Source of the DNA: a bacterium
GTDB lineage: Bacteria > Electryoneota > Electryoneia > Electryoneales > Electryoneaceae
Assembly (NCBI GenBank): GCA_963675295.2
Contig: CAXXKJ010000002.1
Span: 1,472,001 to 1,536,000 of the forward strand
DNA: 64,000 bases
Reading direction: 5' to 3'
Shown here: positions 1,844-27,732 of the stretch, in pieces
Numbering within the stretch: position 1 is the first letter of the stretch
Layout: each line of letters starts with the position of its first letter
Position numbers and translations under genes: made by a program
The notes under the pieces: model-generated
Database searches by the model: none
The model's input: only the letters and a program-made list of their open reading frames with translations
Told to the model about the DNA's origin: nothing

Positions 1844-1872
1844 TTGAAATTAATCTGTGGAACCTTTATATT
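1844..1872 (+). promoter_or_regulatory. sigma70-like promoter of ATPase operon copy 1
   Basis: TTGAAA-N17-TATATT; same offset to the ATG as the equivalent motif before copy 2. Confidence 0.65.
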
Positions 1873-1957
1873 CATCACTCTTGAACCATCCATGGCCCTG
1901 GTTCACCGATAAATCCGCGAATCTACTGTAACCTTGGTTGAGTCTTTCGAGGCAGAT

Positions 1958-3409
1958 ATGATTACCCAGATTAGACTTGAGAATTTCAAGTGTTTTCGTG
2001 ACCTGGTTACGGTAGACTTGAAGCCGATAACAGTATTCGTAGGTCCTAACTCTGGCGGCAAAAGTACACTTACTCAGCCCCTCTTGCTTCTTAAACAGAC
2101 CGTTTTGGCAAACGAGGCTAGCCAAAAGCTATTCACATACGGTCCTATAATAGATATGGGTGATGCAAAATCGATTTTTAACATTAGCAGACCAAATGAC
2201 CCTCTAGGAATTGGTATAAGCCTTACTGAGACAAGTATCCATCCAGAAGGTGATTACTTACCAGTTAATGGATCAACAACTATAAATGATCGCAAATATA
2301 ATTTCAATCCAGTTACGGATATAAATATTTCAATATATCCAAATGATGTTTTAAATATCAGAAATTTAGAAATTAATAAATATACCTTTATTAACAATAA
2401 CATCAACAATCTTCACTATGTTATTAGCACCGAACAAGATCATTTAGCGTATAGAAATAATAATGATATTCTACTAAATAACATAATAATTAATGGTAGT
2501 TTTGGAAATTATGATGTTGGTTTATTGAATCCCATGTCAGAGCATGTTGATGACGAAGGAAATCTTACATTAAAAATGGAAGAATTAGATAACGCTGATG
2601 AACTTAGAAAGATCAAAAGAATGATTAGTGGTTGGATTGGTAATATTAATTATTTTACAAAAAATATATATTTCATTCCAGCTATAAGACATATACCAAA
2701 ATTTTACAATGAATATCAAGGCATAGACCTTAATGATAATAGTAACTCATATTTGAACAGGATTGTCAAAGGTTATACTAAGGAACGCCCAACTGAAAGA
2801 AAGGCATATGTTGATAATATTATTGAGGATAGGTGGTTCAATGAGCTGTGCATAGGCAAAAAACTGATATCGCGTGCTTATAAACATGGCATGGAACTTT
2901 TAGTGGAAAGCAATGATGGTAGTTTAATAAATGTAGCTGCAATGGGTATAGGTATATCGCAATTAATGCCAATAATATTGCTATCAAAAATTGGTGAGAT
3001 CGATTCAATTATAATTCAAGAACCAGAATCACATTTGCACCCAAGTATTCAGAGGAAATTGTCAGAGATGCTATCCTTAAATGTTGGTAATAGATATGAC
3101 GAAATTGATCATATTTGTACTAGAAATGAAAAAGGTAAATTAAGTAAGATAATACAGATGTCGCTTGGGTCTCAATATATAATAGAAACACATAGTGAAC
3201 ACATTGTAAGAGGATTCCAGATAGCAGTGGCGAAGGGATTAATAAGAAATACAGATGTGGGAATTTACTATGTTGATGCATCCCAAACTGAACCCATAAT
3301 ACCGATGAACCTAGATGAAAAAGGAATTCTAGTAAATGATTGGCCAAACGATTTTTACGGTTTTTCATTTGCAATGGCAATGGAATTAAAACGATATACT
3401 GAGAATTGA
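1958..3409 (+). CDS. ABC/AAA_21-type ATPase with C-terminal DUF3696, copy 1
   Basis: Walker A GPNSGGKS, signature MGIGISQ, Walker B IIIQEPESHLHP, H-loop IETHSE, DUF3696-like GIYYVD...LDEKG...WP..F; GAGG RBS before ATG 1958. Confidence 0.9.
   Translation: MITQIRLENFKCFRDLVTVDLKPITVFVGPNSGGKSTLTQPLLLLKQTVLANEASQKLFTYGPIIDMGDAKSIFNISRPNDPLGIGISLTETSIHPEGDYLPVNGSTTINDRKYNFNPVTDINISIYPNDVLNIRNLEINKYTFINNNINNLHYVISTEQDHLAYRNNNDILLNNIIINGSFGNYDVGLLNPMSEHVDDEGNLTLKMEELDNADELRKIKRMISGWIGNINYFTKNIYFIPAIRHIPKFYNEYQGIDLNDNSNSYLNRIVKGYTKERPTERKAYVDNIIEDRWFNELCIGKKLISRAYKHGMELLVESNDGSLINVAAMGIGISQLMPIILLSKIGEIDSIIIQEPESHLHPSIQRKLSEMLSLNVGNRYDEIDHICTRNEKGKLSKIIQMSLGSQYIIETHSEHIVRGFQIAVAKGLIRNTDVGIYYVDASQTEPIIPMNLDEKGILVNDWPNDFYGFSFAMAMELKRYTEN
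1988..2073 (+). repeat. 86-bp block identical to 25442-25527
   Basis: Base-by-base comparison: AAGTGTTTTCGTGACC...AAAAGTACACTTAC is identical in both ATPase genes. Confidence 0.95.
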
Positions 3410-3418
3410 GGCGCTGGC

Positions 3419-4231
3419 ATGGATCATCACATTACAATATCACCAAAAGCATTTTTGCACGATTTTGATTTCAAGCAATTTCACGCAGCAATGCTTAGGA
3501 GAGATCATAAACTTGCCCTAGATGATAATGATGAGATGATCAAATATTATGATAATGTACTAAATAAAGAAATAAGAATGGCAATAATAGCGAAAATGGT
3601 ATCTATAGGTCGGCTAATACAAGAATATAATTTTAATAAAAGCATTAATAGCGAAGAAGATCTGATTATATTTTGTAAGTCTACTCAAGATAAGTTTTGT
3701 GTTTCTTCAGTAAGTGAAAGAAGCGTATATAATTTATTAATATCCGATATCATAGATGAAAACGGCTTGTTATATGAAACAAAATGTAGAACACGTCATT
3801 ACAAAAAGAATGATAGTGCTGATAACTTACTGAAAACAATGCAACACTTAATAGAAAGAAAAAAACATGGCATAGTGCAATATAAAGACAGATATATGGA
3901 AAAATGTATTCCATTTATTGAAATGATACGAGAATCAGCGAAGAAATCAAGCAGCATATTAGAACTGTATCCTGGAAAATCATATTATGAACTACAAAAG
4001 CGTTATAGCGATGATAAAGTAATTAAATTATTGAATAAGGATTCACATGATAGAATGCTGTTGGGCAGCGATTTTGAATTCTTACTTGGTAATGGTATGG
4101 ATACAGTGAGATTTAATGTCCGGAACGGTAAATTAGAAAAAGGCTGCATCTTTCGAGCTGAAAACTCAATATCGCTAAACAGAAAATCAAAGGAGCGCCC
4201 TGCAAAGGTAACTGAAGCTTGGACCTTGTAG
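3419..4231 (+). CDS. ATPase partner with putative PLD-like (MIT_C-type) C-terminal domain, copy 1
   Basis: 9 bp after the ATPase; motifs YKDRY and SHDRMLLGSDFEFLLGNGMD; N-terminal RRDHKLALDD matches RRHKLVVDE of copy 2. Confidence 0.6.
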   Translation: MDHHITISPKAFLHDFDFKQFHAAMLRRDHKLALDDNDEMIKYYDNVLNKEIRMAIIAKMVSIGRLIQEYNFNKSINSEEDLIIFCKSTQDKFCVSSVSERSVYNLLISDIIDENGLLYETKCRTRHYKKNDSADNLLKTMQHLIERKKHGIVQYKDRYMEKCIPFIEMIRESAKKSSSILELYPGKSYYELQKRYSDDKVIKLLNKDSHDRMLLGSDFEFLLGNGMDTVRFNVRNGKLEKGCIFRAENSISLNRKSKERPAKVTEAWTL

Positions 4232-4237
4232 CATGAG

Positions 4238-6184
4238 GTGGCTGACATGGCAAGAGTGTTCCCAAGTTGGCTTACGATCCATGATGCCTCCAAGTTTACC
4301 CCAGCACTGACCCCTGGCGAGGAATATCTGGTTGAACAGCTTGAGTCCCTCCTGGATGACAAATGGTCTGTTTATGTCCAGCCCCATTTGAATGGCGATC
4401 GACCTGATGTTGTTGCAATGAATCCAAACGTAGGTGTTACTTTTTTTGAAGTTAAGGACTGGAATTTGGATCTGTATAATGTTGATTCTTTTGACAATTG
4501 GCATGTTGTGACCAGACATGGAAGACAGACCTGGGTAGCATCTCCATTCAAGCAGGTCACCCGTTACCGTACGAATGCAATAAACCTACTTGTACCTCAA
4601 ATTGGACGTGCTGTTGATGAGGAACCCCAAAGACTACAAGCCTTAAAGACAGCCGTCTATTTCCACAATTCATCGGGCGAAATTGCCCGTAGCTTCAAGA
4701 CACCATCATCAAAGTATATATATGTGTTCGGATATGACGATTTTCCAAATGGTCTGCAAAAAATTATTCCAGACTTCGGGTACTCGAGCTCAAAATACAT
4801 GAAACCGAATTGGGCCAAGGAGCTAGCTCCTTGGCTACTTCCGCCCAGGCATGAAGCAACGCACGGGCGACTCCCATTGAGTCGTGAACAACGTCAACAC
4901 GCAACGCCATCGCAGGGCTTTCATCGGTTAAGAGGGGTTGCAGGATCTGGTAAAAGCTTGGTTGTAGCACATAGAGCGGCTGCCAATGCGCAAGCCGGTA
5001 AGCGAGTTTTGGTTTTGTGTTTCAATATCACGCTTGTGAATTACCTTTTGGATCTAGTAAAACGCGCACCTTACAACTTTGACCCATCATATATATCGAT
5101 TAGATATTTTCATGATGCATGTATCTGGATTAATGATAAGTTAGGAAGTTATCTTTCGGCTAAGAAGGGTGATGAAGAGGTATATTTTGAAAAAACAGTT
5201 CCGAATAAGACAATTAACGCCTTAGAAAGTTACATGACACTGAATGGTAGATTGCCATACGAGTTACGCTTCGACAGTGTACTGATAGATGAAGGCCAAG
5301 ATTTTACAAGGTCTTACTATGAGGTGGCAAGGATCTTGGCATCCGCATCCGGGAGAGAATTTGAATTGTTCATGACTGCTGACTACGCCCAGAACATTTA
5401 CAACCGTGAGTATAGCTGGTTGGAGGATATGAGGGGAACCGGTTTCCGTGGTGCCTGGGGAAAGCTTGCAAAAACATATAGAATGCGTCAAAGATTCGCA
5501 TCTGCTGCATGGCGTTTTGCTCAGGCTTGTGGGTTGGACACAGATTTACCAGAATTTGATGTAAACCAAGTTGGCCTGCTTGAAACCCTCGTATACTACC
5601 GTACGAAAGATATAGAGTCAGCCTGCAGAATCGCACTTGGGTGCTATGAATACCTTAGATCGGTTAGAGGTGTGCATCCACAGGATACAGCACTCTTGGT
5701 GCCCGACCATTCAACTGGTGTTAGTATGGCGACATGGTTAAATAATCAGGGAAATAGGGTTAATCATGTTTTTAGTACAGCTATAGACGAGAGACAAAGA
5801 CATAAAAAAGGTTTTTGGATGGGGCAAGGTGGAATAAAAATGTCCACAATACATAGTTTTAAAGGATGGGAGATTAATAGTTTGATATTAATAGCTAATA
5901 AAGAAACTTTAGCTAACATTAATACATCTATGATAATATATGTAGCTTTAACACGTGCGATCGAAAACATATATATTATATCTACTTATGATATAATCAA
6001 TATAGAAACCACAGAGCCTGATAATATCCCACTAGAAATATTAGAATATGCAGGAAAGACATCTTTTACGATCAACTGGAGAAATACTGTTCGTTCAAGT
6101 GACGAAGGATTGGATTACTATGACCGTATTGATCCTCCAGAAACTCATGGAGATGCTTGGTCATTCGGAATTGACGACGATTAG
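4238..6184 (+). CDS. NERD nuclease fused to UvrD-like SF1 helicase
   Basis: N-terminal RPDVV...FEVKDW; Walker A GVAGSGKS, IDEGQD, TIHSFKGWE, YVALTRA. Confidence 0.88.
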   Translation: MADMARVFPSWLTIHDASKFTPALTPGEEYLVEQLESLLDDKWSVYVQPHLNGDRPDVVAMNPNVGVTFFEVKDWNLDLYNVDSFDNWHVVTRHGRQTWVASPFKQVTRYRTNAINLLVPQIGRAVDEEPQRLQALKTAVYFHNSSGEIARSFKTPSSKYIYVFGYDDFPNGLQKIIPDFGYSSSKYMKPNWAKELAPWLLPPRHEATHGRLPLSREQRQHATPSQGFHRLRGVAGSGKSLVVAHRAAANAQAGKRVLVLCFNITLVNYLLDLVKRAPYNFDPSYISIRYFHDACIWINDKLGSYLSAKKGDEEVYFEKTVPNKTINALESYMTLNGRLPYELRFDSVLIDEGQDFTRSYYEVARILASASGREFELFMTADYAQNIYNREYSWLEDMRGTGFRGAWGKLAKTYRMRQRFASAAWRFAQACGLDTDLPEFDVNQVGLLETLVYYRTKDIESACRIALGCYEYLRSVRGVHPQDTALLVPDHSTGVSMATWLNNQGNRVNHVFSTAIDERQRHKKGFWMGQGGIKMSTIHSFKGWEINSLILIANKETLANINTSMIIYVALTRAIENIYIISTYDIINIETTEPDNIPLEILEYAGKTSFTINWRNTVRSSDEGLDYYDRIDPPETHGDAWSFGIDDD

Positions 6185-6994: not shown

Positions 6995-8491
6995 TTACAT
7001 GTGGCGATCTTCAAGCTTCATGAAGAATCCAGCTGGTTTACGGTCAATAAATGTGCGACGCTTCTGGGTGGACTGAACCAGCTGGCCTACCGCAACAGCT
7101 GCTGCAACGCCCCCGCCATGAATGCTTGCTGATGGAAGCATTCCTGCTGATCCTGCCACCACCGCGCCGGCCATAGCTACGCCGCCCATTAGGGTGGGAA
7201 TTAGCTTCTGATCGATTTCTTTCCATTCTATCCGTGCTTGGGCTACCTCGTGCTTTAGCTCGTCAGCCAAGTGTGAAGTGTTAATATCGCTGTATTTGTC
7301 ATCCACAGAAGCACTGTTCCACATCTTTCTGAGGAAGCTTCTCATGCTGCTAAGTCGATCACGCTTCCGTAGTTCAAGCGCGTCTGATATTTCGATGTTG
7401 TTGAGATAGAAGAACTCTTGTTCCTGAAATGCCTTAGCAAATGGTGACCAGAATTTAATTTTATCGTGATCTAACTCATGATCTGTCTGTAGTTCTTTCC
7501 AGCGATAAGGGACGTCAGTTGCTATGTACGACCCCGTAATAGCACAGGTCTCCTTTGCTTCATCATAACCAGCACCTGTAGTTGCAAACCGCAGGTCACC
7601 AGAAGTTTCACGAGGATCAAAGTAGAAGGGATTCTGTTTCTTCATGTTCTCCCAATAATCCAGAAGTTGTTCCTTACTAACTCCTGGTGGCAAGTCGGTC
7701 ATTTCTTCAACCGCTTGCAGCACTTCCTTTTCCATCGTCGCCCACTCCATCGCTCGCATGTATGGGTCTTCCATCATGCGTTCCGTAGCAGCCGCTATCT
7801 CCCTTTCAGCTGCGGCCACCAGATCGGGATTGCTTCTACTTCGCTGATCAGAACGGCGGAAACATTCATGTCGTAATCCTGGTACAAAATCCCCGGGAGT
7901 TCGGATAATATCCAATAGACCCGCTTCAATCCACGGAAGGAAATGGCTATAAATCATGAAGGCGCGTAATGTACTTGCCAGATGCATCTCGGGATGTTCA
8001 AGTGGGCTGAATTTTTTATTGATCCATAACGGGTGCACGAAGGGATCGATGAGTAGAATTTTGTCGCTATAGCAACAATGGCGTACTACACCTCGGGACA
8101 GGAGCTTTGGGATATCATAGTAACCCACATATAGGCCCGTCGTCGTTCGCTGATACGGTTCAAGCAACTTTTGATGATCTGTATCAAGTGGCCACAGTTC
8201 CGCGATGAACTGGTGAATGTCATGTACCACTTGTGGCGTGAATAGCTTTTTGATTTCTCCTGGATTTTCAAGATCCCTGGGGTCAGATAACAACTGCCGC
8301 CCCAGTACTTCTTCCATTTTCCAAGCAAGTAAGAGATTTCGACCCCTGACTGTAACAAATGGAATCCGATCCTTAACTGGTTTCTGGTTCAAATCATTCC
8401 AGTCCACGTGCCCTTGGCAACATTGTTTATACTTCTTGCCGGACATGCAGGGGCATGGGTCGTTGCGATTGATTTTGTTTTTGCTAGCCAT
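6995..8491 (-). CDS. SEC-C zinc-motif protein with C-terminal hydrophobic Gly/Ala segment
   Basis: N-terminal RNDPCPCMSGKKYKQCC; C-terminal LMGGVAMAGAVVAG...VAAAVAVG. Confidence 0.75.
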   Translation of the reverse strand: MASKNKINRNDPCPCMSGKKYKQCCQGHVDWNDLNQKPVKDRIPFVTVRGRNLLLAWKMEEVLGRQLLSDPRDLENPGEIKKLFTPQVVHDIHQFIAELWPLDTDHQKLLEPYQRTTTGLYVGYYDIPKLLSRGVVRHCCYSDKILLIDPFVHPLWINKKFSPLEHPEMHLASTLRAFMIYSHFLPWIEAGLLDIIRTPGDFVPGLRHECFRRSDQRSRSNPDLVAAAEREIAAATERMMEDPYMRAMEWATMEKEVLQAVEEMTDLPPGVSKEQLLDYWENMKKQNPFYFDPRETSGDLRFATTGAGYDEAKETCAITGSYIATDVPYRWKELQTDHELDHDKIKFWSPFAKAFQEQEFFYLNNIEISDALELRKRDRLSSMRSFLRKMWNSASVDDKYSDINTSHLADELKHEVAQARIEWKEIDQKLIPTLMGGVAMAGAVVAGSAGMLPSASIHGGGVAAAVAVGQLVQSTQKRRTFIDRKPAGFFMKLEDRHM

Positions 8492-8499: not shown

Positions 8500-11400
8500 T
8501 CAGTCAATAACGAACGCATTTGGCCAGCCACCGTGTTCTTCGATGACTTCATCGATCTCGCCCACGATGAGGATGGTCTTCTGTATGGCAACAATGATCT
8601 TCTTGTAGTGCTCGATGTCTTCATCGGTTAATGTGCGCCCTGGCCGACCTTTCTTCGGCCCCCTGTCCTTTAGCCACTTCTTGCAAACAGGGTATCCCCC
8701 AATTTCATAATTCCACAGTTTGCTTGATATACCCGAAAACGAAATGTTCTTATCTTTATCTATCCATATCATGTTATCTTTAAATAATACTGAAGATATC
8801 CTCGGTGAAGCGCCGGAAGTGTTTTCATATGATACTGACGACAATGAATCAATTTTTTTTAACATATGTATATTTGTTAACTCTTTACCTTTGGTTTCTA
8901 GTTTTTCATACAATACTTTAGATTTGGTTATTGGGATATGCGGGTAATCAGATCGTAATTGCTTATCATATCGAGTACGGTATTTACTTGAATATAATAT
9001 GGCGTATATATAATATATGGATACATTTTCTTTGATGTTATTTATTGTATAATTATCTATTCTACCCATAACATCTTGTTTATAATATAATACTTGGGGT
9101 AAATAAGCTACTTTTCCTTTTGTACTGTAAAACGATCGATTGTTTGGAAGTACATTTGTTATTAATGCATGTGTAAAATATGAACCGATTGATACCTGCC
9201 TCATTATCATTAATGCTATATTATCATGCTCCACAAGATGTTTTCCAACTCTATAACTTGCAGTCATAACAAATTCCGGATTATAATACGCATATCTAAT
9301 ATCAAAAGGAGCATATAAAAACTTTATAATCGAACCATTTAGTTTATTATCGGTTACCATAGATTTTCTACGCGAAAATAAATCCTTTGCATAGACACCT
9401 GTAAGTCTATACTCTGATGTAACAATTTCATCTGATAAGGTAGAAAATTTTATTATATTATCTAATAACTCTTCTTTTGTAAATGCCGTAAGTAGTTGAT
9501 CATAACCGGAAGTAAACCCGGTAGCAAAATCATTGAATAATTCAGCACAAGAAATATAATTATTATATTCAGCATCAATAGAAACGTCTGATATATCAAA
9601 AATATAATTAGGTCTAATTGGTGATATCACTTTTAATGATAAGCTAGTGGCAGTTTCTTTTAGGAGTGTAGCATATTTATCATCACGAATGCCATAAATA
9701 TCTTTATAAAGCGTTAACATCTCGTTTGTAGTACTTTTTAATTTATATGAAATATTTATAGTAACTCCCTTTTTTATATCAAATACGTTATTATCTGGTT
9801 TTCCTTCCGGTGTACGTTCTTTTTTATCAGCATCACCGTGTAAATTAACTACCATCATACGATCACAATTCGATATAAGATTCCACCTAAATCCCCTAAG
9901 AGATAGCGCATCTAAGTAACTGTTATTTGTTATATAACCAATAATATTAGGAATATTCGCTGTAACTAATTGGGATAATCTAAAAAACTTGATATAATCG
10001 TCATTAAGATTACGTTCAAGCGACAAAGCACTCTTTTCGGAAATAGGAAGATTGTCTATGTATCGATACACATCTATCATCGATTTGACTGAATTAGACA
10101 TGTTAGCAGACATCTGCGCATAAGGTGGATTTGCAATAATTATCGTAAATAATTTATTAAACATAATATTCTGAACCATAGTTGCTTCTTTGGCAAGAGC
10201 GGGTAATATATTCTTTAGTGATACTTGTTTGTGGCCTGTAATAAATTCAAGCGAGTTTGAGAGATAAATGCGAGCTCTCTCTGAGGACTTGAAGTCATAT
10301 CCTGTTTCAATGAGTTTCAAACCAATCTTCATGTGTGCAATTGCATAAGGCGCCATCAGAAGTTCGAAGCCGTGAAGGCGAGGAAGTAGGGAATCCGCTA
10401 CATAGTCATTCCACAGGTCGTGGATTTCAGTCTTGCTATTTCCCGCTGACTTCCACTTTTTCTTCATCGTAGTATGTATAACGCCGATGACTTCAACCAG
10501 GAATGTGCCAGTTCCTGTTGCTGGATCAAGGATTTGGACAAACGGCTTTTCCGGATCAGCGCTATTTGGTATTTCGAAATCATCAATCCGCTGTCCCATC
10601 TCCCCCCAAGTTGTTGTATCCGCCAAACCGTCTTCCAAGCCAAATTCGGTTCGGAGTAGTTCATCTACGGACCTTACGATGAACGAAACTACCGGTCGTG
10701 GGGTATAGAAGACACCGCGTTGCATCCTCTTTTTCGCGTCGTATTCCTTAAGAAACAGCTCATAGAAGTGGATTACGGGGTCTTCGTAGGGATTGCGGTC
10801 ACCAAAGTCGCGCAAAACGGCTTCCATGTTTGCGTCCCGCAGAAGCTGTACGACTTCGTTTACACCCAATTCATCAAAATCGATGCCTGTACCCCGATTA
10901 TCACCATCTCGATCACGACCACCCATCTTCAGAAAGGTCTCGAGAAGTTCCTTCAGAAACGGATTGGTTACGGGGACCATGTCTGCGGCGTTATCGGCAA
11001 CCAAACCTTCCGGGCGCGATATCCTTGCCGTCAGTAACCCGTATGCGATGGTCTGTGCGTACATGTCTGCAAAGTCGTCTTCTTCCAGATCATGGATCAG
11101 CGCTTTTTTGAAGCTGTCCATCATGGTGCGGAGTGGACCTTTTTCGGATTCTGAATCCAGAGCTGAATTCACCTTCTTGCGAATGACCTTGGCCAGTTCA
11201 GCCAACCGAATCGCCAGGGCTTTTGATGTAGTAATGACCTCGCGGTGTCGAACCTGGAAGGCCTTCGACCATTCTTCACGCCAGGTATCCGTATCGGTGG
11301 GATCGTCCGGCCATCGAAGCCGGGTCTTCATCGTCTGAACCGAGTGTTCCAAGTGAAGGACTGTGTTTTCACCGTCCCACCCTAGAACATGAAGTGTGGG

Positions 11401-15000: not shown

Positions 15001-15033
15001 AGCATCTCCTACTATTGCAAGTAGAGTGGCATC

Positions 15034-15062
15034 AAGGTAGTGCGGCAAGTGTATGGAGGCAA
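15034..15062 (-). promoter_or_regulatory. Possible sigma70 promoter for the helicase-MTase operon
   Basis: TTGCCT-N17-TACCTT on the minus strand, ~35 nt upstream of the ATG. Confidence 0.35.
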
Positions 15063-15782: not shown

Positions 15783-15812
15783 GTTTTTAGACCCTTCGTC
15801 GCTATTCTTTGT

Positions 15813-16145: not shown

Positions 16146-16158
16146 GAAACCCTCCTTT

Positions 16159-16770: not shown

Positions 16771-16809
16771 CTTGCTCTCCAAATGTTATCTGAGTACCAA
16801 CTGGGGATA

Positions 16810-18493: not shown

Positions 18494-18501
18494 ACTGCGC
18501 C

Positions 18502-19440
18502 TCAAAGTTTGAGAAAATCTTCCCATTCTATTCTTTCAGACAGGTTCTTCTGTTGAAATTCTGAGGCTTTGTGCGGCTTGCCAGAAAAATGAAAAGTTTG
18601 TATAGTGCCGTCATCAAATTCGATTTGGTAGTTTGGGGCTGTTTCACCCGTGTTACCAACCCACACATAACGAGGTATTATTTCCGGATATTCGGAATTT
18701 TCAAGAAGCGTACTTAGGTTAGATACTATTGAGTCTCGTATGTCAGGTGTTACATTCTTATTCACTTCATCATCATTTAATTTTATTGCACTACTTGCAA
18801 CAAAATCGTATGATTTTAATGCAACACCTAATATGTGAAGGAAATAGTCATTTCTAAAATCCTCTAACTTGGCGAATTTATCGTAAATTTCCTTCCATGT
18901 AATAACAGGTACTTTCAATGGTTCAGTAAACTTTTTGTATTGTTGTTCAGCTAGTAATAAGATATGAATTGGAGCCCTCCTGGTTGATAAGTTTTTACAT
19001 AGATGATTAATAACTTCCTTTTGTTTACTAACTTGATATTTTAGATCAGCAGTTGTTGTATATCCAAATAATTTAGCTTCTATAACTATTAATATAATTG
19101 TGTTATCAGGATATACAATGTTAAAAACAATATCCGGTGTATCAAATCGGCGAGGAGGGCTACCATAGGTTTTTATAACGTTTCCAACCCACGCTTTCTT
19201 CAAATTGTATTCTGTAAATATTTGGATATTTGTTCTGTTTCTATCAGCACAAATCGCAGGCCATTCTACTTTATTTTGCAACTTTTCATTTATCAAATTT
19301 AAAAATACCGATATATATTCAAATTGATTTTTGCATATGATTTGAGGTAATACAGTAGCCGTGTAAAATCGCTCATCCCGGCTTAACGGAAGACCCTTGC
19401 CAGAATTATCGATCCCGAAAACCTCCTCCACAGATTGCAT
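18502..19440 (-). CDS. Putative PD-(D/E)XK nuclease
   Basis: RDERFY; TPDIVF...IVIEAK; ITWKEI; AT-rich. Confidence 0.65.
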   Translation of the reverse strand: MQSVEEVFGIDNSGKGLPLSRDERFYTATVLPQIICKNQFEYISVFLNLINEKLQNKVEWPAICADRNRTNIQIFTEYNLKKAWVGNVIKTYGSPPRRFDTPDIVFNIVYPDNTIILIVIEAKLFGYTTTADLKYQVSKQKEVINHLCKNLSTRRAPIHILLLAEQQYKKFTEPLKVPVITWKEIYDKFAKLEDFRNDYFLHILGVALKSYDFVASSAIKLNDDEVNKNVTPDIRDSIVSNLSTLLENSEYPEIIPRYVWVGNTGETAPNYQIEFDDGTIQTFHFSGKPHKASEFQQKNLSERIEWEDFLKL

Positions 19441-19777: not shown

Positions 19778-20065
19778 AGCATCGCCGAAACAGATTCGAA
19801 AGGCTCGGTCGAAGGAGATAGGATCAGAACTAATATCTATGTTTTCTGCGCTAATGTGACCGACCTCCTTGCTAGCTAATCTAAGACCAAAACCATTTTA
19901 CCTACAGCTCTAAATCCGTCCCACTTCTGATGTCAGAGAATCTACCACTTTGGAAAAGTTAAAATTTTGCCGTTCAATTGCGAACATGAATTCAGATCAT
20001 TAGATTTGCTGCTCAGTAGATGCGCGAACTTCTCAAAGATAAATCACTCTCACAAGGGAACTAAA

Positions 20066-21301
20066 ATGTTCGGAAAATTTGTTCGGGTTCTTCAGAACGT
20101 CGCTAAAGGATTTGGCGACGCTGCCCAAACCGTAGCCCATGAAGGTGGAAAAGTCATTGATAAGGGCTTGAAAGTAACGGGGGATGCTGCCCAAACCGTA
20201 GCCCATGAAGGTGGAAAAGTCATTGATAAGGGCTTGAAAGTAACGGGGGATGCTGCCCAAACCGTAGCCCATGAAGGTGGAAAAGTCATTGATAAGGGCT
20301 TGAAAGTAACGGGGGATGCTGCCCAAACCGTAGCCCACGAAGGTGGAAAAGTCATTGATAAGGGCTTGAAAACAGCCGGTGAAGTGGGCGATGGTATAGG
20401 TAAAGGCATTAGGCAGGCAGCTGAAGAAAATAACGTCCTAAATATGGGTGCTAGGGAGAAAGCGCTAAAGGAGCTTGAAGGCGCTTATAACACTTATCAA
20501 CAGAAACGTGCAGAGCTCGAAGATCGGCTGGTGCGCCTGTACAATCTAAGGAAAGGTATCGCAGAAAAGACGCTACCATCTGTTGAGCTCTATCTAAGTG
20601 AATTAGCAAATGCGCCAAGAGAATTCAAAGTCGGGGCTAGAGAATTAAGCCTAGTTGCCCAGGAATTCACTGGAATAGCCGAGCAGGTAAAGTCAGAGGT
20701 TAAGAAAACAGACCAAAAAGCTATGACTGGCGTGGCTTTGGCAGCTGGAGGTGGTGCTGCCACAGCGGCGATGGCTCCTACCTTAGCGATGGCAGTAGCT
20801 ACTACTTTTGGCACAGCTTCCACAGGCACAGCGATCTCAACACTGTCTGGTGCAGCTGCAACACAAGCTGCCCTTGCTTGGCTCGGTGGTGGCACTCTAG
20901 CTGCAGGGGGTGGAGGAACAGCATTGGGCGCGCAGGTCATATCAGTGTTGTCTGGACCCATTGGTTGGGCTATTGCTGCGGCAGGCATTGCAGCTACCGG
21001 CTGGTTTGTTGACAAAAAGAACCGTGAAATTGCAGAAGAGGCTACTGAGAAAACAATAACGATTCGCTCCGAATCAGCCAGGCTGGGTACGATTAGGGAA
21101 TCTACAGAACGATTAATTAACCAGACTGGCAAGCATCAGAAAGGCGTTACGGATCACCTTAGCTGGATCCGTCAAAACGCACCTCAGGATTACAAGCACT
21201 TTACTGACCAAGACAAAACAGAGTTAATGGCCTTAATCAACAATGTACGGTCCTTGACTCAGCTTCTTTCTGAACGAATTGACCCAACTGAGGGTAGCTG
21301 A
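20066..21301 (+). CDS. Coiled-coil membrane protein with N-terminal 22-aa repeats and Gly/Ala-rich hydrophobic hairpin
   Basis: 4x GDAAQTVAHEGGKVIDKGLK(VT); ASTGTAISTLSGAAATQAALAWLGGGTLAAGGGG...GPIGWAIAAAG. Confidence 0.8.
   Translation: MFGKFVRVLQNVAKGFGDAAQTVAHEGGKVIDKGLKVTGDAAQTVAHEGGKVIDKGLKVTGDAAQTVAHEGGKVIDKGLKVTGDAAQTVAHEGGKVIDKGLKTAGEVGDGIGKGIRQAAEENNVLNMGAREKALKELEGAYNTYQQKRAELEDRLVRLYNLRKGIAEKTLPSVELYLSELANAPREFKVGARELSLVAQEFTGIAEQVKSEVKKTDQKAMTGVALAAGGGAATAAMAPTLAMAVATTFGTASTGTAISTLSGAAATQAALAWLGGGTLAAGGGGTALGAQVISVLSGPIGWAIAAAGIAATGWFVDKKNREIAEEATEKTITIRSESARLGTIRESTERLINQTGKHQKGVTDHLSWIRQNAPQDYKHFTDQDKTELMALINNVRSLTQLLSERIDPTEGS
20114..20371 (+). repeat. Near-perfect 66-bp in-frame tandem repeat, ~3.9 copies
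   Basis: Units start at 20114, 20180, 20246 and 20312 and differ at only a few synonymous positions. Confidence 0.97.
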
Positions 21302-21303
21302 AA

Positions 21304-22785
21304 GTGGCGAAGAAAAGGCAGAAAGCAGACCCAAACAGTCACCTCTCTGGACAGATCATTGGTGCCGGTGTTGATGCCGAAAAAGCTAGTCGACTGGCAG
21401 CAGAAACCGCAGCAATTTCCGCACAGGATCGAGCGTATGCTGCTGCAAGTGATTCCATTGACCAGGTCAGGAAATTTGTTGGAAGCCCGGAACACATCCT
21501 TGGAAATCCCGACACCAAACATGGAGAAATCGCCGAACATGCGCAAGTAGCTATTGATAACTCAAATGCTTTGCTTCAGCAACAAAGTCCTTCATCAACT
21601 TTCGATGGTGTAAGTAGAACGGATCCTGCTGACTACTTGAGGGACGGTGTATTTGTTCAATCCAAATATATCAATGGACTTAATAAAAACCTTCAGCACG
21701 TTCTGGATCATTTGCGCCAATATCCAGATTTTGGCCGTGGTGAAGAATACTATCACATTCCCAAAAATCACTTCAATGGCATCATGGAAGTGGTTCGGAA
21801 TAATGAGTACTCCACGTTGAACACTAGAAGTATTGCGGCAATCCAGGATAAAATTTCGAGGATTGAAGCATCCACTGGTCGTGACTTCACTGACGTCGTC
21901 AGACCAGGAGCTCTTGATTATGCAGCAGTTCAGCAAGGTAAAATCCATACAACGCTTGATGAGTGCGATAATTCCCTTAAAATCAGGAACGAAGAGCTGA
22001 AGCAAGAAATCTACCAGGAGCACCAGGCATCACTTGGTGGTGCAATTATGGCCGCGGGCGGTGGGGCGGCCGTAGGTGCAGGAATTCGACTGGTCAAAGT
22101 GTATTTTGACAAGAAGAACGAAGGAAGAGATTTATTTAAAGGCGAGTTCACGACCCAGGACTGGCAGGACTTTGGACTTCAGGGTGTTGGCGGAGCTGTT
22201 CAAGGTGGTGTTTCCGGTGCGGCAATATATGCCTTGACTAACGCCACAGATATGGCGGCCCCTTTTGCTGCAGCATTTGTGACAAGCGGAATCGCCATCG
22301 GTCGGTTAGCTTATGACTACAAGCAAGGTCGGATTTCACAAGAAGAATTAGTAGAAAATGGCTTAGTTGTTTGTCTTGAAGGTGGTATTGTAGCTCTAAC
22401 CACAATTGCTGGTCAGACGCTGATTCCTGTCCCAATACTGGGATCGGTTTTGGGCGCAGTGTCAGGAAGAGTGTTGGTTGCCGTAGGCAGAAATGTACTT
22501 GGACAAGCGGATGCGCAACTATGGGAGATGCTAGAGGCACGGCTGGATCAAGCTCAATCAGCCACAGAACATAAATACCTGCCAGTTTTCCAAGAGATTA
22601 CAGCAAAATTCGATTACCTTGAGGATCTTTCAAACATAGCGTTCGATCTTGACAATAATTGCTCGTTAGTACGCTTGAGTGCTAGCATCAACATGGCAAG
22701 GCATTTGAATGTCCCTGAAGAAGAAATCATGCGCAAATATGAAGACCTTGATCGGTTCATAGTAGGCAATGGGTCAGCATCATAA
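21304..22785 (+). CDS. Membrane protein with putative restriction-endonuclease-like N-terminal domain
   Basis: HGEIAE...ADYL...VQSK (E...D...QxK); several Gly/Ala hydrophobic segments incl. GQTLIPVPILGSVLG; 2 bp after the previous gene. Confidence 0.7.
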   Translation: MAKKRQKADPNSHLSGQIIGAGVDAEKASRLAAETAAISAQDRAYAAASDSIDQVRKFVGSPEHILGNPDTKHGEIAEHAQVAIDNSNALLQQQSPSSTFDGVSRTDPADYLRDGVFVQSKYINGLNKNLQHVLDHLRQYPDFGRGEEYYHIPKNHFNGIMEVVRNNEYSTLNTRSIAAIQDKISRIEASTGRDFTDVVRPGALDYAAVQQGKIHTTLDECDNSLKIRNEELKQEIYQEHQASLGGAIMAAGGGAAVGAGIRLVKVYFDKKNEGRDLFKGEFTTQDWQDFGLQGVGGAVQGGVSGAAIYALTNATDMAAPFAAAFVTSGIAIGRLAYDYKQGRISQEELVENGLVVCLEGGIVALTTIAGQTLIPVPILGSVLGAVSGRVLVAVGRNVLGQADAQLWEMLEARLDQAQSATEHKYLPVFQEITAKFDYLEDLSNIAFDLDNNCSLVRLSASINMARHLNVPEEEIMRKYEDLDRFIVGNGSAS

Positions 22786-22926: not shown

Positions 22927-24030
22927 GTGAATACTCCAAACCTGTTCAATTTTGCGACGTCTGAACTATCACAGGATGCAACACTTGCCTACATCCTCGC
23001 CTGGGCAAAACCTGAGTACAAGGCAAATGGCTATCTACTGAACCGACTTGGCGAGTCATTACTACGTGCAATGGTCGAAAGCTGGGCTCGAGCCACAGAC
23101 AATCCGGATCCACTAGAAGGTGTTCCGATAGCTTTAGTTGAGGTAGGAACGCAACGGAATCACATTGATCTGTGGGCTAAAATCAATGATGATCTAGTAC
23201 TGATCGTTGAGGACAAAACCCAGACAGTTGAACATTCTGATCAAATTGCTAGATACCAGCAAAAAGCCGCGAATATGTGGCCGGAACGCATGGCAGTTGC
23301 AGTATATGCAAAAACAGGTAACGAGTGTCTTCCATCGCTAGAGGAAGGCGACAAGCACTTCGGTATGTTCTTGCGTCCTGACTTGCTGGAAGTACTGGAT
23401 TCTGTAATCGAGACAGACAACACCATCCTCGCAGAATTCAAACAGTACTTACAAACCTGGCAAGATGAAACTGACAGCTACCAAACTGAACCATACTATC
23501 GCTGGAAAACGAAAGAAGATCGTAACTGGCGAGCGACACACGCAATTGAAGGGTTTTATGACGAATTGAATCGTTGGTTGACCAGTATGGGTGAATGGTC
23601 GAACTGGGGTTATGTCGCAAACCCGAATGGCGGATTCATGGGCTTCTGGTGGTATTGGAAAGTGCACCATGGATTGAACTGTGAACTCTACCTTCAGATT
23701 GAAAGCGGATGGCGTCTCCAGATCAGGGTTAACCGTCTGCCGGACGAGGACAAGAACTACGAAAAGGTAACCAAGGATCTTATGTGGGATGCCTGGTTCG
23801 CCATTGAAGCTGCAGCTGCCGCACCTGCGTTCGATCTAATCCAGATCAATAAGTCGGGTCGATATCGTGGTGGCAAAATGGCATCGGTGGCCGACGTGAC
23901 GTTCTATGACAAAGACACTTACCTCGCTTCCAAAAGCGACGGTATCATCCACATGCCAGGCACAAAGCGTAACCTGCAGCTGGCAATGCAGCTCGTTGAT
24001 GCGGTTTGCACTCGATCCAAAGAGGAGTAG
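22927..24030 (+). CDS. PD-(D/E)XK nuclease (PDDEXK_4-like)
   Basis: NLFNFATSELSQDA; IDLW...IVEDK...HSDQIARY; WGYVANPNGGFMGFWW. Confidence 0.82.
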   Translation: MNTPNLFNFATSELSQDATLAYILAWAKPEYKANGYLLNRLGESLLRAMVESWARATDNPDPLEGVPIALVEVGTQRNHIDLWAKINDDLVLIVEDKTQTVEHSDQIARYQQKAANMWPERMAVAVYAKTGNECLPSLEEGDKHFGMFLRPDLLEVLDSVIETDNTILAEFKQYLQTWQDETDSYQTEPYYRWKTKEDRNWRATHAIEGFYDELNRWLTSMGEWSNWGYVANPNGGFMGFWWYWKVHHGLNCELYLQIESGWRLQIRVNRLPDEDKNYEKVTKDLMWDAWFAIEAAAAAPAFDLIQINKSGRYRGGKMASVADVTFYDKDTYLASKSDGIIHMPGTKRNLQLAMQLVDAVCTRSKEE

Positions 24031-24108
24031 GGACGACGGACAAAACAGCGATTCTGCTTGTTCAGCAGAAACCAGAATCGCTCGCACTTGTAATCCTAGG
24101 GAGCAGAC

Positions 24109-24696
24109 ATGGCACTGCGAGACTACGATCGTTACGTCAATAACAGCATCTTGAAGGCGTCTACCCGGCCCCAAGTTTCTAGCACTTGTTCTGTGAATGC
24201 GATGGCAACAGCGATAAATGCAGCATTTGGGCTTTCGCTATTTCCAAGTGAAGTGGAAGAAATCTGTGGCTGGAAACGTACTTGGGTTCAAGACGGTGAA
24301 GTCGGAAATGATGAATTGGAATGGGGTATGAAGGAAATTATCAAGCAGAAAAAACTTTCAGGGAAAGTCACCCGCTTTCTCACTTCGGTCAAACTGGGTG
24401 AGCAGAACATTGAGAAAACTTGGACCCGGCTTAAAAAAGCGATTCGGGCTAAAAACATTGCACTAATTTATCACATGCCGGGTCACTACACAGTCCTCGG
24501 AGGATATTTTGAGGAACCCTGGGACGTAAAATCCAAGAATAGCACGGCATTCGAAAACAGAAGGGATTGGGTAGTGATAGCTGAGCACTCAAGGAATAAG
24601 AAAGATACTCCTATATGGTGCATGACCTGGAAGGAACTGAGGTGCGATATTCGAGACGACAGCAATCATATGATATTCCGCGTTTCGAAGCTTTAA
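24109..24696 (+). CDS. Putative papain-fold (C39/phytochelatin-synthase-like) cysteine peptidase
   Basis: Q-x4-C (QVSSTCS), GHYTVLGGY, WVVIAE; GGAG RBS. Confidence 0.55.
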   Translation: MALRDYDRYVNNSILKASTRPQVSSTCSVNAMATAINAAFGLSLFPSEVEEICGWKRTWVQDGEVGNDELEWGMKEIIKQKKLSGKVTRFLTSVKLGEQNIEKTWTRLKKAIRAKNIALIYHMPGHYTVLGGYFEEPWDVKSKNSTAFENRRDWVVIAEHSRNKKDTPIWCMTWKELRCDIRDDSNHMIFRVSKL

Positions 24697-25044: not shown

Positions 25045-25224
25045 GCTCGAGCAGATGCAGTAGTTGATGTTAGTTCAGTTACAACGCAATTTGCTACAGG
25101 AATTTTTGGGGTGCCTGACCGGATCGGGCATCCTTACTCTTTCGAACCTATATCATCAGTATTTTAGGAGAAGCAGGTCGATGAAGCGAGTGAAGAGTGG
25201 TGGCACAGTGCCGCACCACGATAA
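25045..25224 (+). pseudogene. Degenerate paralog of the 1501-1779 ORF
   Basis: In-frame ARA...SVF*EKQVDEASEEWW aligns with ARA...AVHQARQIDSMFEEWW; TAG at 25165 where copy 1 has CAG. Confidence 0.5.
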
Positions 25225-25297
25225 ATAAAAAGCCAATGGCAGGAGGTGTCAGTGGTATCGAAAGGTCCTCGCTCCGCTCAATTTCCTGCAGTTGGGT

Positions 25298-25326
25298 TTG
25301 AACTAGATATGATGAACCGCTACCTT
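25298..25326 (+). promoter_or_regulatory. sigma70-like promoter of ATPase operon copy 2
   Basis: TTGAAC-N17-TACCTT; its -35 lies 114 nt before the ATG, as in copy 1. Confidence 0.55.
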
Positions 25327-25411
25327 TGGTGGTTGGAGGTAAAGATCATGTTGGCATATGCCGACAATCGACGAATTCGTCGACGTATTTGTGGGATTTC
25401 TCGAGGTACGT

Positions 25412-26863
25412 ATGATCACCCAGATAAGATTGGAAAATTTTAAGTGTTTTCGTGACCTGGTTACGGTAGACTTGAAGCCGATAACAGTATTCGTAGGTCC
25501 TAACTCTGGCGGCAAAAGTACACTTACCCAACCTTTGCTATTGTTTAAACAGTCTAAACTTTTCAAAGCATCTAAAAATGAAATCCCAACCAGTGGTCCA
25601 ATAATTGACTTAGGAGAACCAAAACATCTGTTCAATACTTCTGCGCCAAATAACGAAATGGTGCTCGGCCTGAGCATAGCAGAAACAAATTTCCACCCAG
25701 ACGGTGATGCTTATCGTCCAATCACAAACACTGCAGAACTATCCAACAAGGAGATTATGTTCAACCCTGTATCAGATTTTGACATAATAGTTTCTGCCAA
25801 TGACAAACTATATTTAGATAGATTCAAGTTAAATGGATTGCGTTTTCTTATAAATAATAACTATATACCACGTTACAGTTTACTAAACGACAGCAATACG
25901 AATTTTGAAATTGATAAGAAAAGAAGCATTCTTAGTGAGCTAAATATTGACGGAAACTTCGGCAATTTCAAAGTATCTAAACGTAGTATTGGCTATAGCG
26001 ATGAAGAAGGCCGGCTTGTCATAGACACTAGTAAAAAACATCAGGATGAAGATTTTTTGCGAAAAGAACATCTTATGGAAGTAGGAATATCTAACCTAAA
26101 TTTTTTTCCTCAAATATTGCACTTTGTTCCTGCATGGCGTTCTATTCCAAAGTATTTCACACAATATAAATCAATATCACCACATAACAGTGATACATCT
26201 TATTTAGAAACAATTATTGGGCGCTATACTAATTACATGGCATCTAATGATCAACCTTATAAAGATAATAGTATAGAAGATAATTGGCTAAAGAAGTTAA
26301 ATATAGGGTATAGACTCGTATCACGCGCATATAAGCATGGGATTGAACTTCTTGTAGATGTAGATGGTGACAACCTAATTAATGTCGCCTCTATGGGAAT
26401 GGGAGTATCACAATTAATTCCTATAATAATATTATCCAATATAGATTATATAGATACATTGATTATTCAAGAGCCTGAATCACATCTTCATCCAAATACA
26501 CAACGTAAAATTGCTGAACTATTGGCCGCTAATGTAGGAAATAGACAAGATGAAGTAGCTCACATAGGTATTCGAAATAAAGAGGGCATAATTAACAAAT
26601 TGAGACCGTTAACACTTGGATCACAGTATATTATCGAGACGCATAGTGAACACATAGTACGCGGATTCCAGATTGCAGTGGCAAAAGGTATAATTAAGAA
26701 TTCAGATGTTGCCATATATTTTGTCGACGCAAGCCAGGAGAATCCAATCGTACCCATGGAACTCGATGAGAAAGGAATGTTAATGCGCAAATGGCCGAAC
26801 GATTTCTATGGGTTGGCGTACTCTATGACACTGGAGCTAAACCAGATTCAATCCGACAATTGA
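25412..26863 (+). CDS. ABC/AAA_21-type ATPase with DUF3696, copy 2
   Basis: Same motifs as copy 1 (GPNSGGKS, MGMGVSQ, QEPESHLHP, IETHSE, WPNDFYG); same length (1452 nt); GAGGT RBS. Confidence 0.9.
   Translation: MITQIRLENFKCFRDLVTVDLKPITVFVGPNSGGKSTLTQPLLLFKQSKLFKASKNEIPTSGPIIDLGEPKHLFNTSAPNNEMVLGLSIAETNFHPDGDAYRPITNTAELSNKEIMFNPVSDFDIIVSANDKLYLDRFKLNGLRFLINNNYIPRYSLLNDSNTNFEIDKKRSILSELNIDGNFGNFKVSKRSIGYSDEEGRLVIDTSKKHQDEDFLRKEHLMEVGISNLNFFPQILHFVPAWRSIPKYFTQYKSISPHNSDTSYLETIIGRYTNYMASNDQPYKDNSIEDNWLKKLNIGYRLVSRAYKHGIELLVDVDGDNLINVASMGMGVSQLIPIIILSNIDYIDTLIIQEPESHLHPNTQRKIAELLAANVGNRQDEVAHIGIRNKEGIINKLRPLTLGSQYIIETHSEHIVRGFQIAVAKGIIKNSDVAIYFVDASQENPIVPMELDEKGMLMRKWPNDFYGLAYSMTLELNQIQSDN
25442..25527 (+). 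repeat. 86-bp block identical to 1988-2073
   Basis: Direct comparison. Confidence 0.95.
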
Positions 26864-26877
26864 GTCTGGAGGACGCT

Positions 26878-27732
26878 ATGGACTTCGATATAGCTTTCAG
26901 TCCTGACGTATTGAGATTTTTTGTGCTAAAGAATCCTGAGTCAGGAGAACGACTGATCGATATAATGAGTGAGCGGCGCCATAAACTGGTAGTTGATGAA
27001 CATGGAGCTGCCCTACATCTTTATGAAGAAGCGTGTGGAGAAGCGTGGGAGTATTTTTTTCGAGAGTTTGGATCGTATGTCCAATCCCGCAAGATTAATT
27101 CGCCAAAAGATTCTGATGATGCTGATTTCTTGCTAGACTTAGCTTCAAGATCACGAGATCGTGTTTGGATTGGAAGCGGATCGACTGACAGAGAATTGAT
27201 ACGACTTAGCATTGATGAGCTGCTAGAAAATGGAAACATATTATTCTACACTTACACTCAGGTTCCCCCACGCGAATTCAGAAAAGGTCACGACGCTAGT
27301 GGGTTTCTAAAGAGTCTACATCACATGATAGCTCGAACAAGGCATGATGAGATCCGGCTCGAAGATCCATATATCACTGCTGTCGAAGACGAGTTCTTGG
27401 AATTCTTGTGTAATGCGATGACGAGTTCAGATTGCAAGGTGCTCGTCATGCCTTGGAAGGATATGGAAGTACCAAATTCTAGAACAACCAGGGAATCAAT
27501 AAGTCAGTACATGGAAGCGTCAAATATTCGGGTAGTATGGCAGAAGTATCCAAAACTTGATTTTCACGACAGACGTATACGCGGTGACGATTTTATCTAT
27601 GATCTCCACAATTCATTCAGTCGGATCGACATGAAGCGGCGTCAGTTCCGTGGCCAATTTAGATTCAGCATATCGCGTGCAGATGAACTTGTTAAAATCG
27701 AAGATCCGCCCAAAGTTTCCATTTCTTTATAA
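26878..27732 (+). CDS. ATPase partner with putative PLD-like (MIT_C-type) domain, copy 2
   Basis: GGAGG RBS; EIRLEDPYI and DFHDRRI motifs. Confidence 0.65.
   Translation: MDFDIAFSPDVLRFFVLKNPESGERLIDIMSERRHKLVVDEHGAALHLYEEACGEAWEYFFREFGSYVQSRKINSPKDSDDADFLLDLASRSRDRVWIGSGSTDRELIRLSIDELLENGNILFYTYTQVPPREFRKGHDASGFLKSLHHMIARTRHDEIRLEDPYITAVEDEFLEFLCNAMTSSDCKVLVMPWKDMEVPNSRTTRESISQYMEASNIRVVWQKYPKLDFHDRRIRGDDFIYDLHNSFSRIDMKRRQFRGQFRFSISRADELVKIEDPPKVSISL

Follow-up and report, generated by a model that had tools for sequence, protein, structure and literature searches.

Two diverged pairs of a DUF3696-type ATPase gene and a gene for a putative PIN-PLD partner: a candidate two-gene anti-phage system in an Electryoneaceae defence island

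Can an ATPase and an effector-like partner protein serve as an anti-phage system on their own, when their nearest described relatives act together with a separate sensor? This question is raised by a stretch of 64,000 nucleotides (nt) from a bacterium of the family Electryoneaceae, phylum Electryoneota (assembly GCA_963675295.2, contig CAXXKJ010000002.1, positions 1,472,001 to 1,536,000 of the forward strand), referred to below as the window. The window carries two copies of a module that consists of a gene for an ATPase of the ATP-binding cassette (ABC) type and, directly downstream, a gene for a partner protein. According to Li et al. (NAR 2025, PMC12065111), the Menshen system has three parts. 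NsnA is a ParB-DUF262 sensor, NsnB is the ABC ATPase and bears a DUF3696 tail, and NsnC, as described in silico, joins an inactive PIN (inPIN) domain to an effector domain that can be of 15 different kinds. HEC-03 is a validated two-gene system of an ABC ATPase and a PIN protein, and defence needs both genes (Payne et al., bioRxiv 10.1101/2024.01.29.577857).

We consider it rather probable that each module, with its two genes, is by itself a complete system against phages, related in type to NsnB/HEC-03, in which the ATPase itself would sense the phage and control a PIN-PLD effector. This reading starts from what is observed at the locus: gene order, homology, folds, motifs, the absence of NsnA and the defence-island context. 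A preliminary description had presented the modules as a candidate undescribed system. This had to be given up, since the partner architecture has already been published for Menshen NsnC and HEC-03 has been validated (PMC12065111; 10.1101/2024.01.29.577857). We read the pairs as a new, rare two-gene branch of the NsnB/HEC-03/PDC-M55 radiation of ATPase-effector pairs and not as a new kind of system.

Layout of the gene pairs and their upstream DNA

The open reading frame (ORF) map shows two collinear pairs on the forward strand, at 1958-4231 and 25412-27732 (Table 1). As described previously, the two ATPase genes are of equal length and each partner gene follows within 15 bp, the gaps being 9 nt in module 1 and 14 nt in module 2. 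ATPase coordinates were counted from MITQIRLENFK, the start common to both copies. Longer ORFs are also open from TTG 1934 (ATPase 1) and ATG 25358 (ATPase 2), and an alternative, longer ORF for partner 2 begins at 26791 and overlaps ATPase 2. The two ATPases share 50% identity over 480 amino acids (aa; E-value 1e-173). The partners, which had been called homologous though very diverged, indeed align collinearly from end to end with 22% identity (E-value 8e-13). Exactly these two copies of the module occur in the genome and, judged from both identities, they are old paralogues.

A 165-nt direct repeat covers the 5′ ends of the ATPase genes and contains an exact match of 86 nt. Outside the repeat, third-codon positions of the paralogous genes are only about 40% identical. 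Because the genes are otherwise saturated at synonymous sites, the 86-nt stretch is likely a short, recent gene-conversion tract that joins the 5′ ends of the old paralogues. Neither repeat matched an Rfam family, nor did any other part of the window.

Promoters had been proposed 114 nt before both ATPase genes. For module 1 such a site was found by the promoter scan; its homologue in module 2 is weaker and was not among the reported sites. Promoter-like sites were no commoner than in shuffled sequences, neither in the region of module 1 (24 versus 18.1 ± 4.1) nor in that of module 2 (13 versus 14.1 ± 4.1).

DNA common to both modules is also present further upstream (1471-1779 and approximately 25150-25215), where the end of a small ORF is encoded (...RQIDSMFEEWWQ / ...KQVDEASEEWWH, '...EEWW'). 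This ORF is intact in module 1 (102 aa, low-complexity) and interrupted by a stop codon in module 2. The shared DNA indicates that the duplicated unit extended approximately 250 nt upstream of the ATPase gene. As a candidate third gene the ORF was rejected, since it is stop-broken in module 2 and absent in genome G037, which carries a third instance of the module (see below).

Domain composition of the ATPases and the partner proteins

The sequence comparisons support both ATPases as DUF3696-type ABC ATPases. Pfam profiles AAA_15 (E-values 2.5e-21 for ATPase 1 and 8.5e-26 for ATPase 2) and AAA_21 matched both proteins, and NsnB was the best PADLOC profile for each (6.2e-49 and 2.3e-52, respectively), followed by HEC-03B (97-100 bits), PDC-M55A (87-100 bits) and AriA (E-values 1e-24 to 1e-30). 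Thus the previous assignment to DUF3696 holds as regards the ABC type, the best profile and the WPNDFY tail, whereas the Pfam DUF3696 profile itself remained just below its cut-off of 22 bits (16.2 bits for ATPase 1, 20.8 bits for ATPase 2). ATPase 1 contains a Walker A motif (GPNSGGKST), a GxG signature, a Walker B motif (IIQEPESHLHP) and an H-loop (ETHSEH). In an alignment with canonical NsnB and HEC-03 ATPases from the same phylum, the Walker A motif, the GxG signature, the H-loop and the WPNDFY tail are all retained, as is an arginine in the place of the Q motif. Of the traits of NsnB, the GxG signature and the arginine are present, whereas the alignment gives hhhhQE for the Walker B motif in place of the EN of NsnB (EQ in HEC-03) and the profile scores reach about half the canonical level. 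Additionally, the ATPases possess an insert of about 120 residues (approximately 95-215) which is missing from canonical NsnB. The insert region is the most diverged part of the protein, codons 121-240 being 10-32% identical between the paralogues compared with 60-73% in the C-terminal lobe.

All motifs quoted for the partners in the preliminary description are present (partner 1/partner 2: RRDHKLALDD/ERRHKLVVDE, KDRY/EDPY and SHDRMLLGSDF...GNGMD/FHDRRIRGDDF). By sequence profiles the family is not recognised. Neither partner 1 nor partner 2 matched a PADLOC family at E ≤ 0.1, the partner from G037 matched none at E ≤ 0.001, and Pfam gave no match for partner 1. In the positive control, all three canonical NsnC proteins of the phylum matched PADLOC NsnC profiles. 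A profile of the partner family compared by hhalign showed no similarity to these three NsnC proteins and none to a PDC-M55B-type plasmid protein (0.1% probability); its N-terminal domain was weakly similar to the PIN partners of HEC-03, over 126 columns (61.5% probability, E-value 7.8e-5). In the ESM Atlas, the nearest clusters (score 0.94) consist of hypothetical proteins with lengths of 281-295 aa. Three of 30 matches led to a set of clusters with MIT_C in 10% of its members, a lead only.

For partner 2, an AlphaFold 2 model was built on a seven-sequence alignment; an earlier three-sequence model with a predicted local distance difference test (pLDDT) score of 48.6 was not used. Across residues 141-260 the pLDDT is 58-84. 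Foldseek with this C-terminal domain ranked MITD1 first (2ymb and 4a5z, E-values 1e-5 to 1e-4), followed by PLD2, TrmBL2, NucT and Zucchini. The predicted structure thus supports a PLD fold, with MIT_C as the nearest relative, in the C-terminal half of the partner, as had been anticipated. The proposal of a PLD-fold effector was incomplete with respect to the other half, where a PIN-like domain had been overlooked: according to the model, the partner begins with a PIN-like domain, behind which lies an MIT_C-like PLD domain.

The Asp that closes PIN strand 1 in HEC-03 partners (DTNV) is an invariant Ser in the three full-length sequences of the partner family, and in all six that cover the N-terminal domain. 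Taking the model and the alignment together, this domain is a putative catalytically inactive PIN-like domain. In the C-terminal domain, an acidic residue after strand 158-162 is found in all sequences that cover this motif (6/6), and H-x-R...DF is kept in the five sequences that cover the domain, as HDR in four and as HPR in one. The consensus H-(D/P)-R-x3-(G/A)-(D/S)-D-F-x5-(N/R)-(S/G) has Arg where the H-x-K-x4-D PLD nucleases have Lys.

The main rival to the cleavage step of the favoured reading concerns the C-terminal domain. The PLD-like domain might be non-catalytic and the partner might bind membrane or phospholipid, or serve as scaffold or adaptor, the killing or blocking activity residing elsewhere. 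The nearest fold is MITD1 itself, whose MIT_C is held to be a membrane-binding domain and not an enzyme. The motif is H-x-R and not the H-x-K-x4-D of PLD nucleases, with HPR in place of HDR in one member. By sequence, moreover, the link to the PLD clan is weak: MIT_C (PF16565) is the only Pfam family of this clan that was touched, by only one of the seven family members (partner 2; E-value 0.0046, 17.3 bits, below the cut-off of 25), and the family profile found no MITD1 or PLD chain among the PDB sequences. The model of partner 2 has a mean pLDDT of 64.9 and falls below 50 at residues 101-131 and 267-284. Side by side with these points stand the acidic residue and the H-x-R...DF motif, which every covering sequence retains. 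We regard a non-catalytic partner as unlikely, yet as an explanation to be reckoned with.

Distribution, relatives and genomic neighbourhood

The module was present in two of the 79 species genomes of this small phylum. The second is G037, from another genus of the same family, with a 484-aa ATPase and a 268-aa partner between a membrane protein gene and cysS. The sole DUF262 match of that genome sits on another contig, and this arrangement fits a self-sufficient two-gene unit. The partner family is very rare: when 1.84 billion representative proteins were scanned with its profile in HMMER, only six matched at E ≤ 0.001. Three of these were fragments, and the others were partner 2, the G037 partner and a relative of partner 1 in full length. 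In a word-indexed search the partner query matched itself only and the seven-sequence profile matched four known members only. Using tblastn with partner 2, nothing was found in phages or plasmids, and no relative was found in metagenome contigs (P0004 and ATPase-pair queries) or viral contigs (ATPase-pair query). A scan of genome contigs, which used N-terminal peptide patterns only, returned five distant ATPases with partners of 156-163 aa, which belong to another branch. The Bacillus plasmid pairs retrieved with the ATPase are PDC-M55A/B. Pfam MIT_C had no match in the 79 genomes of the phylum, a result without weight, as its control was negative throughout as well.

This distribution bears on the idea that the modules do not act in phage defence at all and are, for example, housekeeping pairs for repair or processing of nucleic acids. 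The position of the G037 copy next to cysS might be taken in this sense. On the other hand, the module is patchy and very rare, its two copies in the window are inside a defence island with a guanine-plus-cytosine (GC) content unlike that of the flanks, and every related branch of the ATPases belongs to a defence system or to a candidate for one. That the pair plays no part in defence is, in our view, highly improbable.

As stated in the preliminary description, a DUF262 gene is absent: PF03235 had no match in the genome (92.8% complete), and the control was positive in 7 of 14 genomes. The DNA upstream of the two modules contains no long ORF, and no NsnA (ParB-DUF262) gene is located beside either copy. 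We compared NsnB-profile matches with DUF262 matches across the 79 genomes of the phylum. Canonical Menshen is represented by three ATPases (343-360 bits, 358-391 aa) with an adjacent DUF262 gene and an NsnC of 252-324 aa, and all three NsnB matches above 340 bits had a DUF262 match within approximately 1 kb upstream. About 15 further ATPases of the phylum (180-222 bits on NsnB, 440-476 aa) are followed by an ORF of approximately 160-200 aa. HEC-03-type pairs (loci L018-L035) thus outnumber canonical Menshen among the top NsnB-profile matches, with about 15 loci versus three.

In a quick maximum likelihood tree, both ATPases and the G037 ATPase formed a clade of their own (support 99), apart from the NsnB clade (support 99) and from the main HEC-03 clade (support 100). 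The labels of the tree were set by ATPase length and neighbour size ahead of the PADLOC scan, in which 10 of 27 partner ORFs matched HEC-03A. One ORF labelled as a HEC-03 partner (L028) is probably the wrong ORF, a formyl transferase.

Alternatively, the modules might be decayed Menshen operons that have lost NsnA and are inert, or act only as an addiction pair of the toxin-antitoxin type. NsnB is the best profile for the ATPases, the partner shows the architecture of NsnC, and a broken ORF remnant ('...EEWW') is common to the upstream DNA of both modules. This remnant, however, has no similarity to DUF262. At all three loci the genes are intact, with conserved lengths and intact ATPase motifs, and the ATPases form a clade apart from the three canonical NsnB proteins of the phylum, with the Q-E Walker B motif and the 120-aa insert. 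Intact genes, a separate clade and an own Walker B motif and insert speak for an old, stable two-gene lineage, and decay of a Menshen operon appears very improbable.

Both pairs lie, as proposed, in a dense defence island that extends from about 1.8 to 39.3 kb of the window and has a GC content of 32-48%, compared with 57-64% in 2-kb windows beyond 48 kb. The island also contains a complete Zorya type I operon, several helicases and a restriction-modification enzyme (Table 1). The NERD+UvrD helicase gene begins 7 nt past the stop codon of partner 1 and may be co-transcribed with module 1. Its GajB matches were weak (1.7e-10) and C3a187 was the far better profile.

This neighbourhood allows for a further explanation, according to which the modules are three-part systems with a sensor other than NsnA, either the NERD+UvrD helicase, a 186-aa ORF located 61 nt past partner 2 (27793-28353) or a gene elsewhere. 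The GTG start of the helicase gene at 4238 nearly abuts the partner 1 stop at 4231 on the same strand, and there is no convincing terminator between them, the one weak hairpin (4056-4070) lying within partner 1. A third gene is not conserved, though, as the G037 pair is followed by cysS. Furthermore, NERD+UvrD is a candidate family that stands alone, neither module 1 nor G037 has a relative of the 186-aa ORF, and the GC content of the pair 1 genes (32-33%) differs from that of the helicase gene. A third component of this kind is improbable.

Several other observations concern the island itself. A tandem repeat with a 66-nt period (20039-20434, forward strand; five overlapping 132-nt copies are listed, up to 95% identical) encodes a 22-residue repeat near the N-terminal end of the product of the PDC-M09A-like gene (19967-21301), ahead of the PADLOC-matched region, which begins at about residue 122-158. 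ORFs at 6995-8491, 15156-16782 and 18502-19440 (reverse strand) and at 24109-24696 and 27793-28353 (forward strand) matched at most a SEC-C motif and otherwise no family, in scans that used Pfam and PADLOC for most of them and additionally NCBIfam for 27793-28353; they are possible further uncharacterised defence genes. PDDEXK_1, DUF932 and excisionase-like HTH_17 genes are found at 46184-48580, where the GC content climbs from about 47% to 57-64%; an integrated element bearing the island may end here. A tRNA search found none in the window. Proteins flanking the island carry sorting domains of the type IX secretion system (T9SS), which places the host among Bacteroidota-like (FCB) bacteria.

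Table 1. Features of the two modules and of the surrounding defence island (positions within the window)
Feature	Position	Strand	Remarks
Promoter-like site, module 1	1844-1872	+	TTGAAA-17-TATATT, 114 nt before ATG; 10/12 matches (promoter scan)
165-nt direct repeat	1934-2098 / 25388-25552	+	85% identity
ATPase 1	1958-3409	+	1452 nt, 483 aa; predicted ABC ATPase, DUF3696-type tail (WPNDFY)
86-nt exact match	1988-2073 / 25442-25527	+	Inside 165-nt repeat, ATPase 5′ ends; spans Walker A region
Partner 1	3419-4231	+	270 aa; predicted PIN-like N-domain and PLD/MIT_C-like C-domain; KDRY, HDR...SDF...GNG
NERD+UvrD helicase	4238-6184	+	PADLOC C3a187, 1.9e-71; GTG start; GC 42%
Type ISP/IIG restriction-modification enzyme	8500-11832		
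PLD+Snf2 helicase	11842-15048		
DUF2779	16949-18526		
PDC-M09A/B	19967-22785		
PDDEXK_4 protein	22927-24030		
Promoter-like site, module 2	25298-25326	+	TTGAAC-17-TACCTT, homologous to module 1 site; 8/12 by hand count
ATPase 2	25412-26863	+	1452 nt, 483 aa; predicted ABC ATPase, DUF3696-type tail
Partner 2	26878-27732	+	284 aa; predicted PIN-like domain ~1-120 and PLD/MIT_C-like domain ~127-275; LEDPY, HDRRIRGDDF, NS
MkoC-like helicase, superfamily 1 (SF1)	28520-31957	-	C-terminal DUF559/MTES_1575 nuclease; adjoins Zorya operon
Zorya type I operon, complete (ZorD-C-B-A)	31830-39222	-	
ZorD	31830-35183	-	
ZorC-like protein	35180-36475	-	EH_Signature domain
ZorB	36478-37281	-	
ZorA	37285-39222	-	

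Proposed mechanism and comparison with known systems

Our proposal for the mode of action is drawn by analogy with Menshen and HEC-03 and with PARIS and Septu, for which we follow the summary in PMC12065111. In an AlphaFold 3 model of Menshen, the inPIN domain is clamped by two DUF3696 tails of an NsnB tetramer (PMC12065111). Similarly, the ATPase would hold the effector via its DUF3696 tails, and the putative inactive PIN domain of the partner would be the docking or target-recognition part. As long as the ATPase oligomer holds this domain, the effector would be kept silent. As no NsnA is present, we assign the sensing of the trigger, presumably a phage product, to the ATPase itself, where the hypervariable insert of about 120 residues would be the sensing element. 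Binding or hydrolysis of ATP would then release, rearrange or reposition the partner. Its C-terminal domain could be a single-motif PLD-like phosphodiesterase of the MIT_C/PB-PLD1 type, and two such domains would come together in a single active site and cut nucleic acid. In single-HKD PLD nucleases of the Nuc type there is likewise one motif per chain and the active site is formed by a dimer. Different inserts and different PIN-like domains in the paralogues lead us to infer that the two copies answer to different phages. A 1:1 complex prediction for ATPase 2 and partner 2 (score 0.16, mark 0.32) counts neither for nor against such an assembly, the published Menshen model being 4:2 (PMC12065111).

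Apart from the points on the C-terminal domain given above, several observations weigh against our reading. The ATPases reach only 166-177 bits on NsnB, compared with 343-360 bits for canonical NsnB of the same phylum, and their scores are far below those of true members of every named branch. Their clade rests on a quick tree only and is placed on a backbone left unresolved in it. The G037 pair has housekeeping neighbours, and with three genomic contexts known in all there are too few to test for enrichment in defence islands. Catalysis by MIT_C-type domains, as in BrxL and MITD1, has only been hypothesised (PMC12065111). We infer that the modules act in defence, that the partner is bound, that the insert serves as sensor and that the C-domain is catalytic, and its substrate is likewise inferred.

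The strongest form of the proposal is that the modules represent a fourth, NsnA-independent DUF3696 branch in which the ATPase senses the phage through its insert and the MIT_C-type domain is a working H-x-R phosphodiesterase that becomes active when two released partners pair. We put this forward tentatively and consider it doubtful. If true, it would provide the first functional evidence for MIT_C-type PLD domains, which also form the C-termini of BrxL and occur in human MITD1, as enzymes, and it would mean that the effector half of Menshen is able to run without a ParB-like sensor. The mechanism of Menshen is unsolved, notably the signalling from NsnA to NsnB (PMC12065111). A pair that resembles NsnB and NsnC and lacks NsnA might serve as a minimal version for studying the control of the effector by the ATPase alone, and with its two diverged copies the locus itself offers a test of cognate specificity.

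The modules would escape current defence finders. PADLOC names the ATPase but no partner and hence calls no system, in agreement with the earlier expectation that it would return no full-system match. A literature search found no description of an ATPase plus PIN-PLD pair lacking NsnA. Among the matches listed, PMC12065111 alone uses 'NsnB' and 'NsnC' in the Menshen sense and 'PB-PLD1', and it alone treats the ATPase among the matches for 'DUF3696'. The Menshen census, which comprises 1997 systems, was seeded on DUF262 (PMC12065111), and NsnA-less pairs were thus beyond its reach.

The pairs look like the last two genes of Menshen working without the DNA-sensing first gene. Identity with Menshen NsnBC, which the preliminary description had named as a competing possibility, largely applies to the architecture and does not extend to NsnA, the ATPase clade or a match to NsnC profiles. 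Both NsnB and the ATPases described here are ABC ATPases with a DUF3696-type tail, a GxG signature and an arginine in place of the Q motif. In both cases the downstream effector would combine an inactive PIN-like N-domain with an MIT_C-like PLD C-domain; the corresponding Menshen domain, PB-PLD1, is one of the NsnC effector domains and carries an acidic residue after β2 and an HDR motif (PMC12065111), and both features have their counterparts in the partners. The fold matches of PB-PLD1 and of the C-domain are nearly identical, with MITD1 first and then NucT. Several diverged copies of Menshen are present in each of 53 genomes (PMC12065111), as are two diverged copies here. Differences from Menshen are the absence of a ParB-DUF262 gene both beside the copies and genome-wide, the length of the ATPase (483 aa with the insert, compared with approximately 360-390 aa for NsnB), the Q-E instead of E-N Walker B motif together with the separate ATPase clade, and a partner that none of the many NsnC profiles of PADLOC recognises.

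With HEC-03 the modules share the two-gene operon without a separate sensor, an ATPase from the DUF3696-type radiation with an insert at the same position, and a PIN fold in the partner. The HEC-03 partner, in contrast, consists of PIN alone (approximately 160-200 aa) and keeps the acidic residues (DTNV / EY / SDRK / ATD), whereas the partners described here have Ser at the first of these positions and an additional PLD-like domain, and do not match HEC-03A. Their ATPases are outside the HEC-03 clade, and their scores on HEC-03B compare with 367 bits for a true member. PDC-M55, a PADLOC candidate found for example on plasmids of the Bacillus cereus group, likewise pairs a DUF3696 ATPase with a hypothetical protein (approximately 315-350 aa) without NsnA and near defence genes. 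Its partner has no profile similarity to ours, and the plasmid ATPase reaches 267 bits on PDC-M55A, far above the scores obtained here.

PARIS (AriA/AriB), Septu (PtuA/PtuB) and Gabija (GajA/GajB) are more remote. They have in common with the modules an ABC ATPase, a nuclease effector and ATP-coupled control of this effector, which for the modules is the proposed arrangement. Their effectors are Toprim/DUF4435, HNH and fused Toprim, respectively, without a PIN+PLD partner and without a DUF3696 tail; their ATPase profiles match more weakly than NsnB, and no match to AriB, PtuB or Toprim was obtained with the partners. The C-domain has its best fold matches in the MIT_C of MITD1 (2YMB, 4A5Z) and in single-HKD PLD nucleases (Nuc, NucT, Zucchini, BfiI), which have one motif per chain as well, and is distinguished from them by H-x-R...D instead of H-x-K-x4-D, by the lack of an MIT domain and by a sequence identity of only 8-16%. 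Taken together, the modules extend published families and add no new principle. What is new is that three traits come together here: NsnA is lacking, the ATPases form a clade of their own, and the partner family goes unrecognised by sequence profiles.

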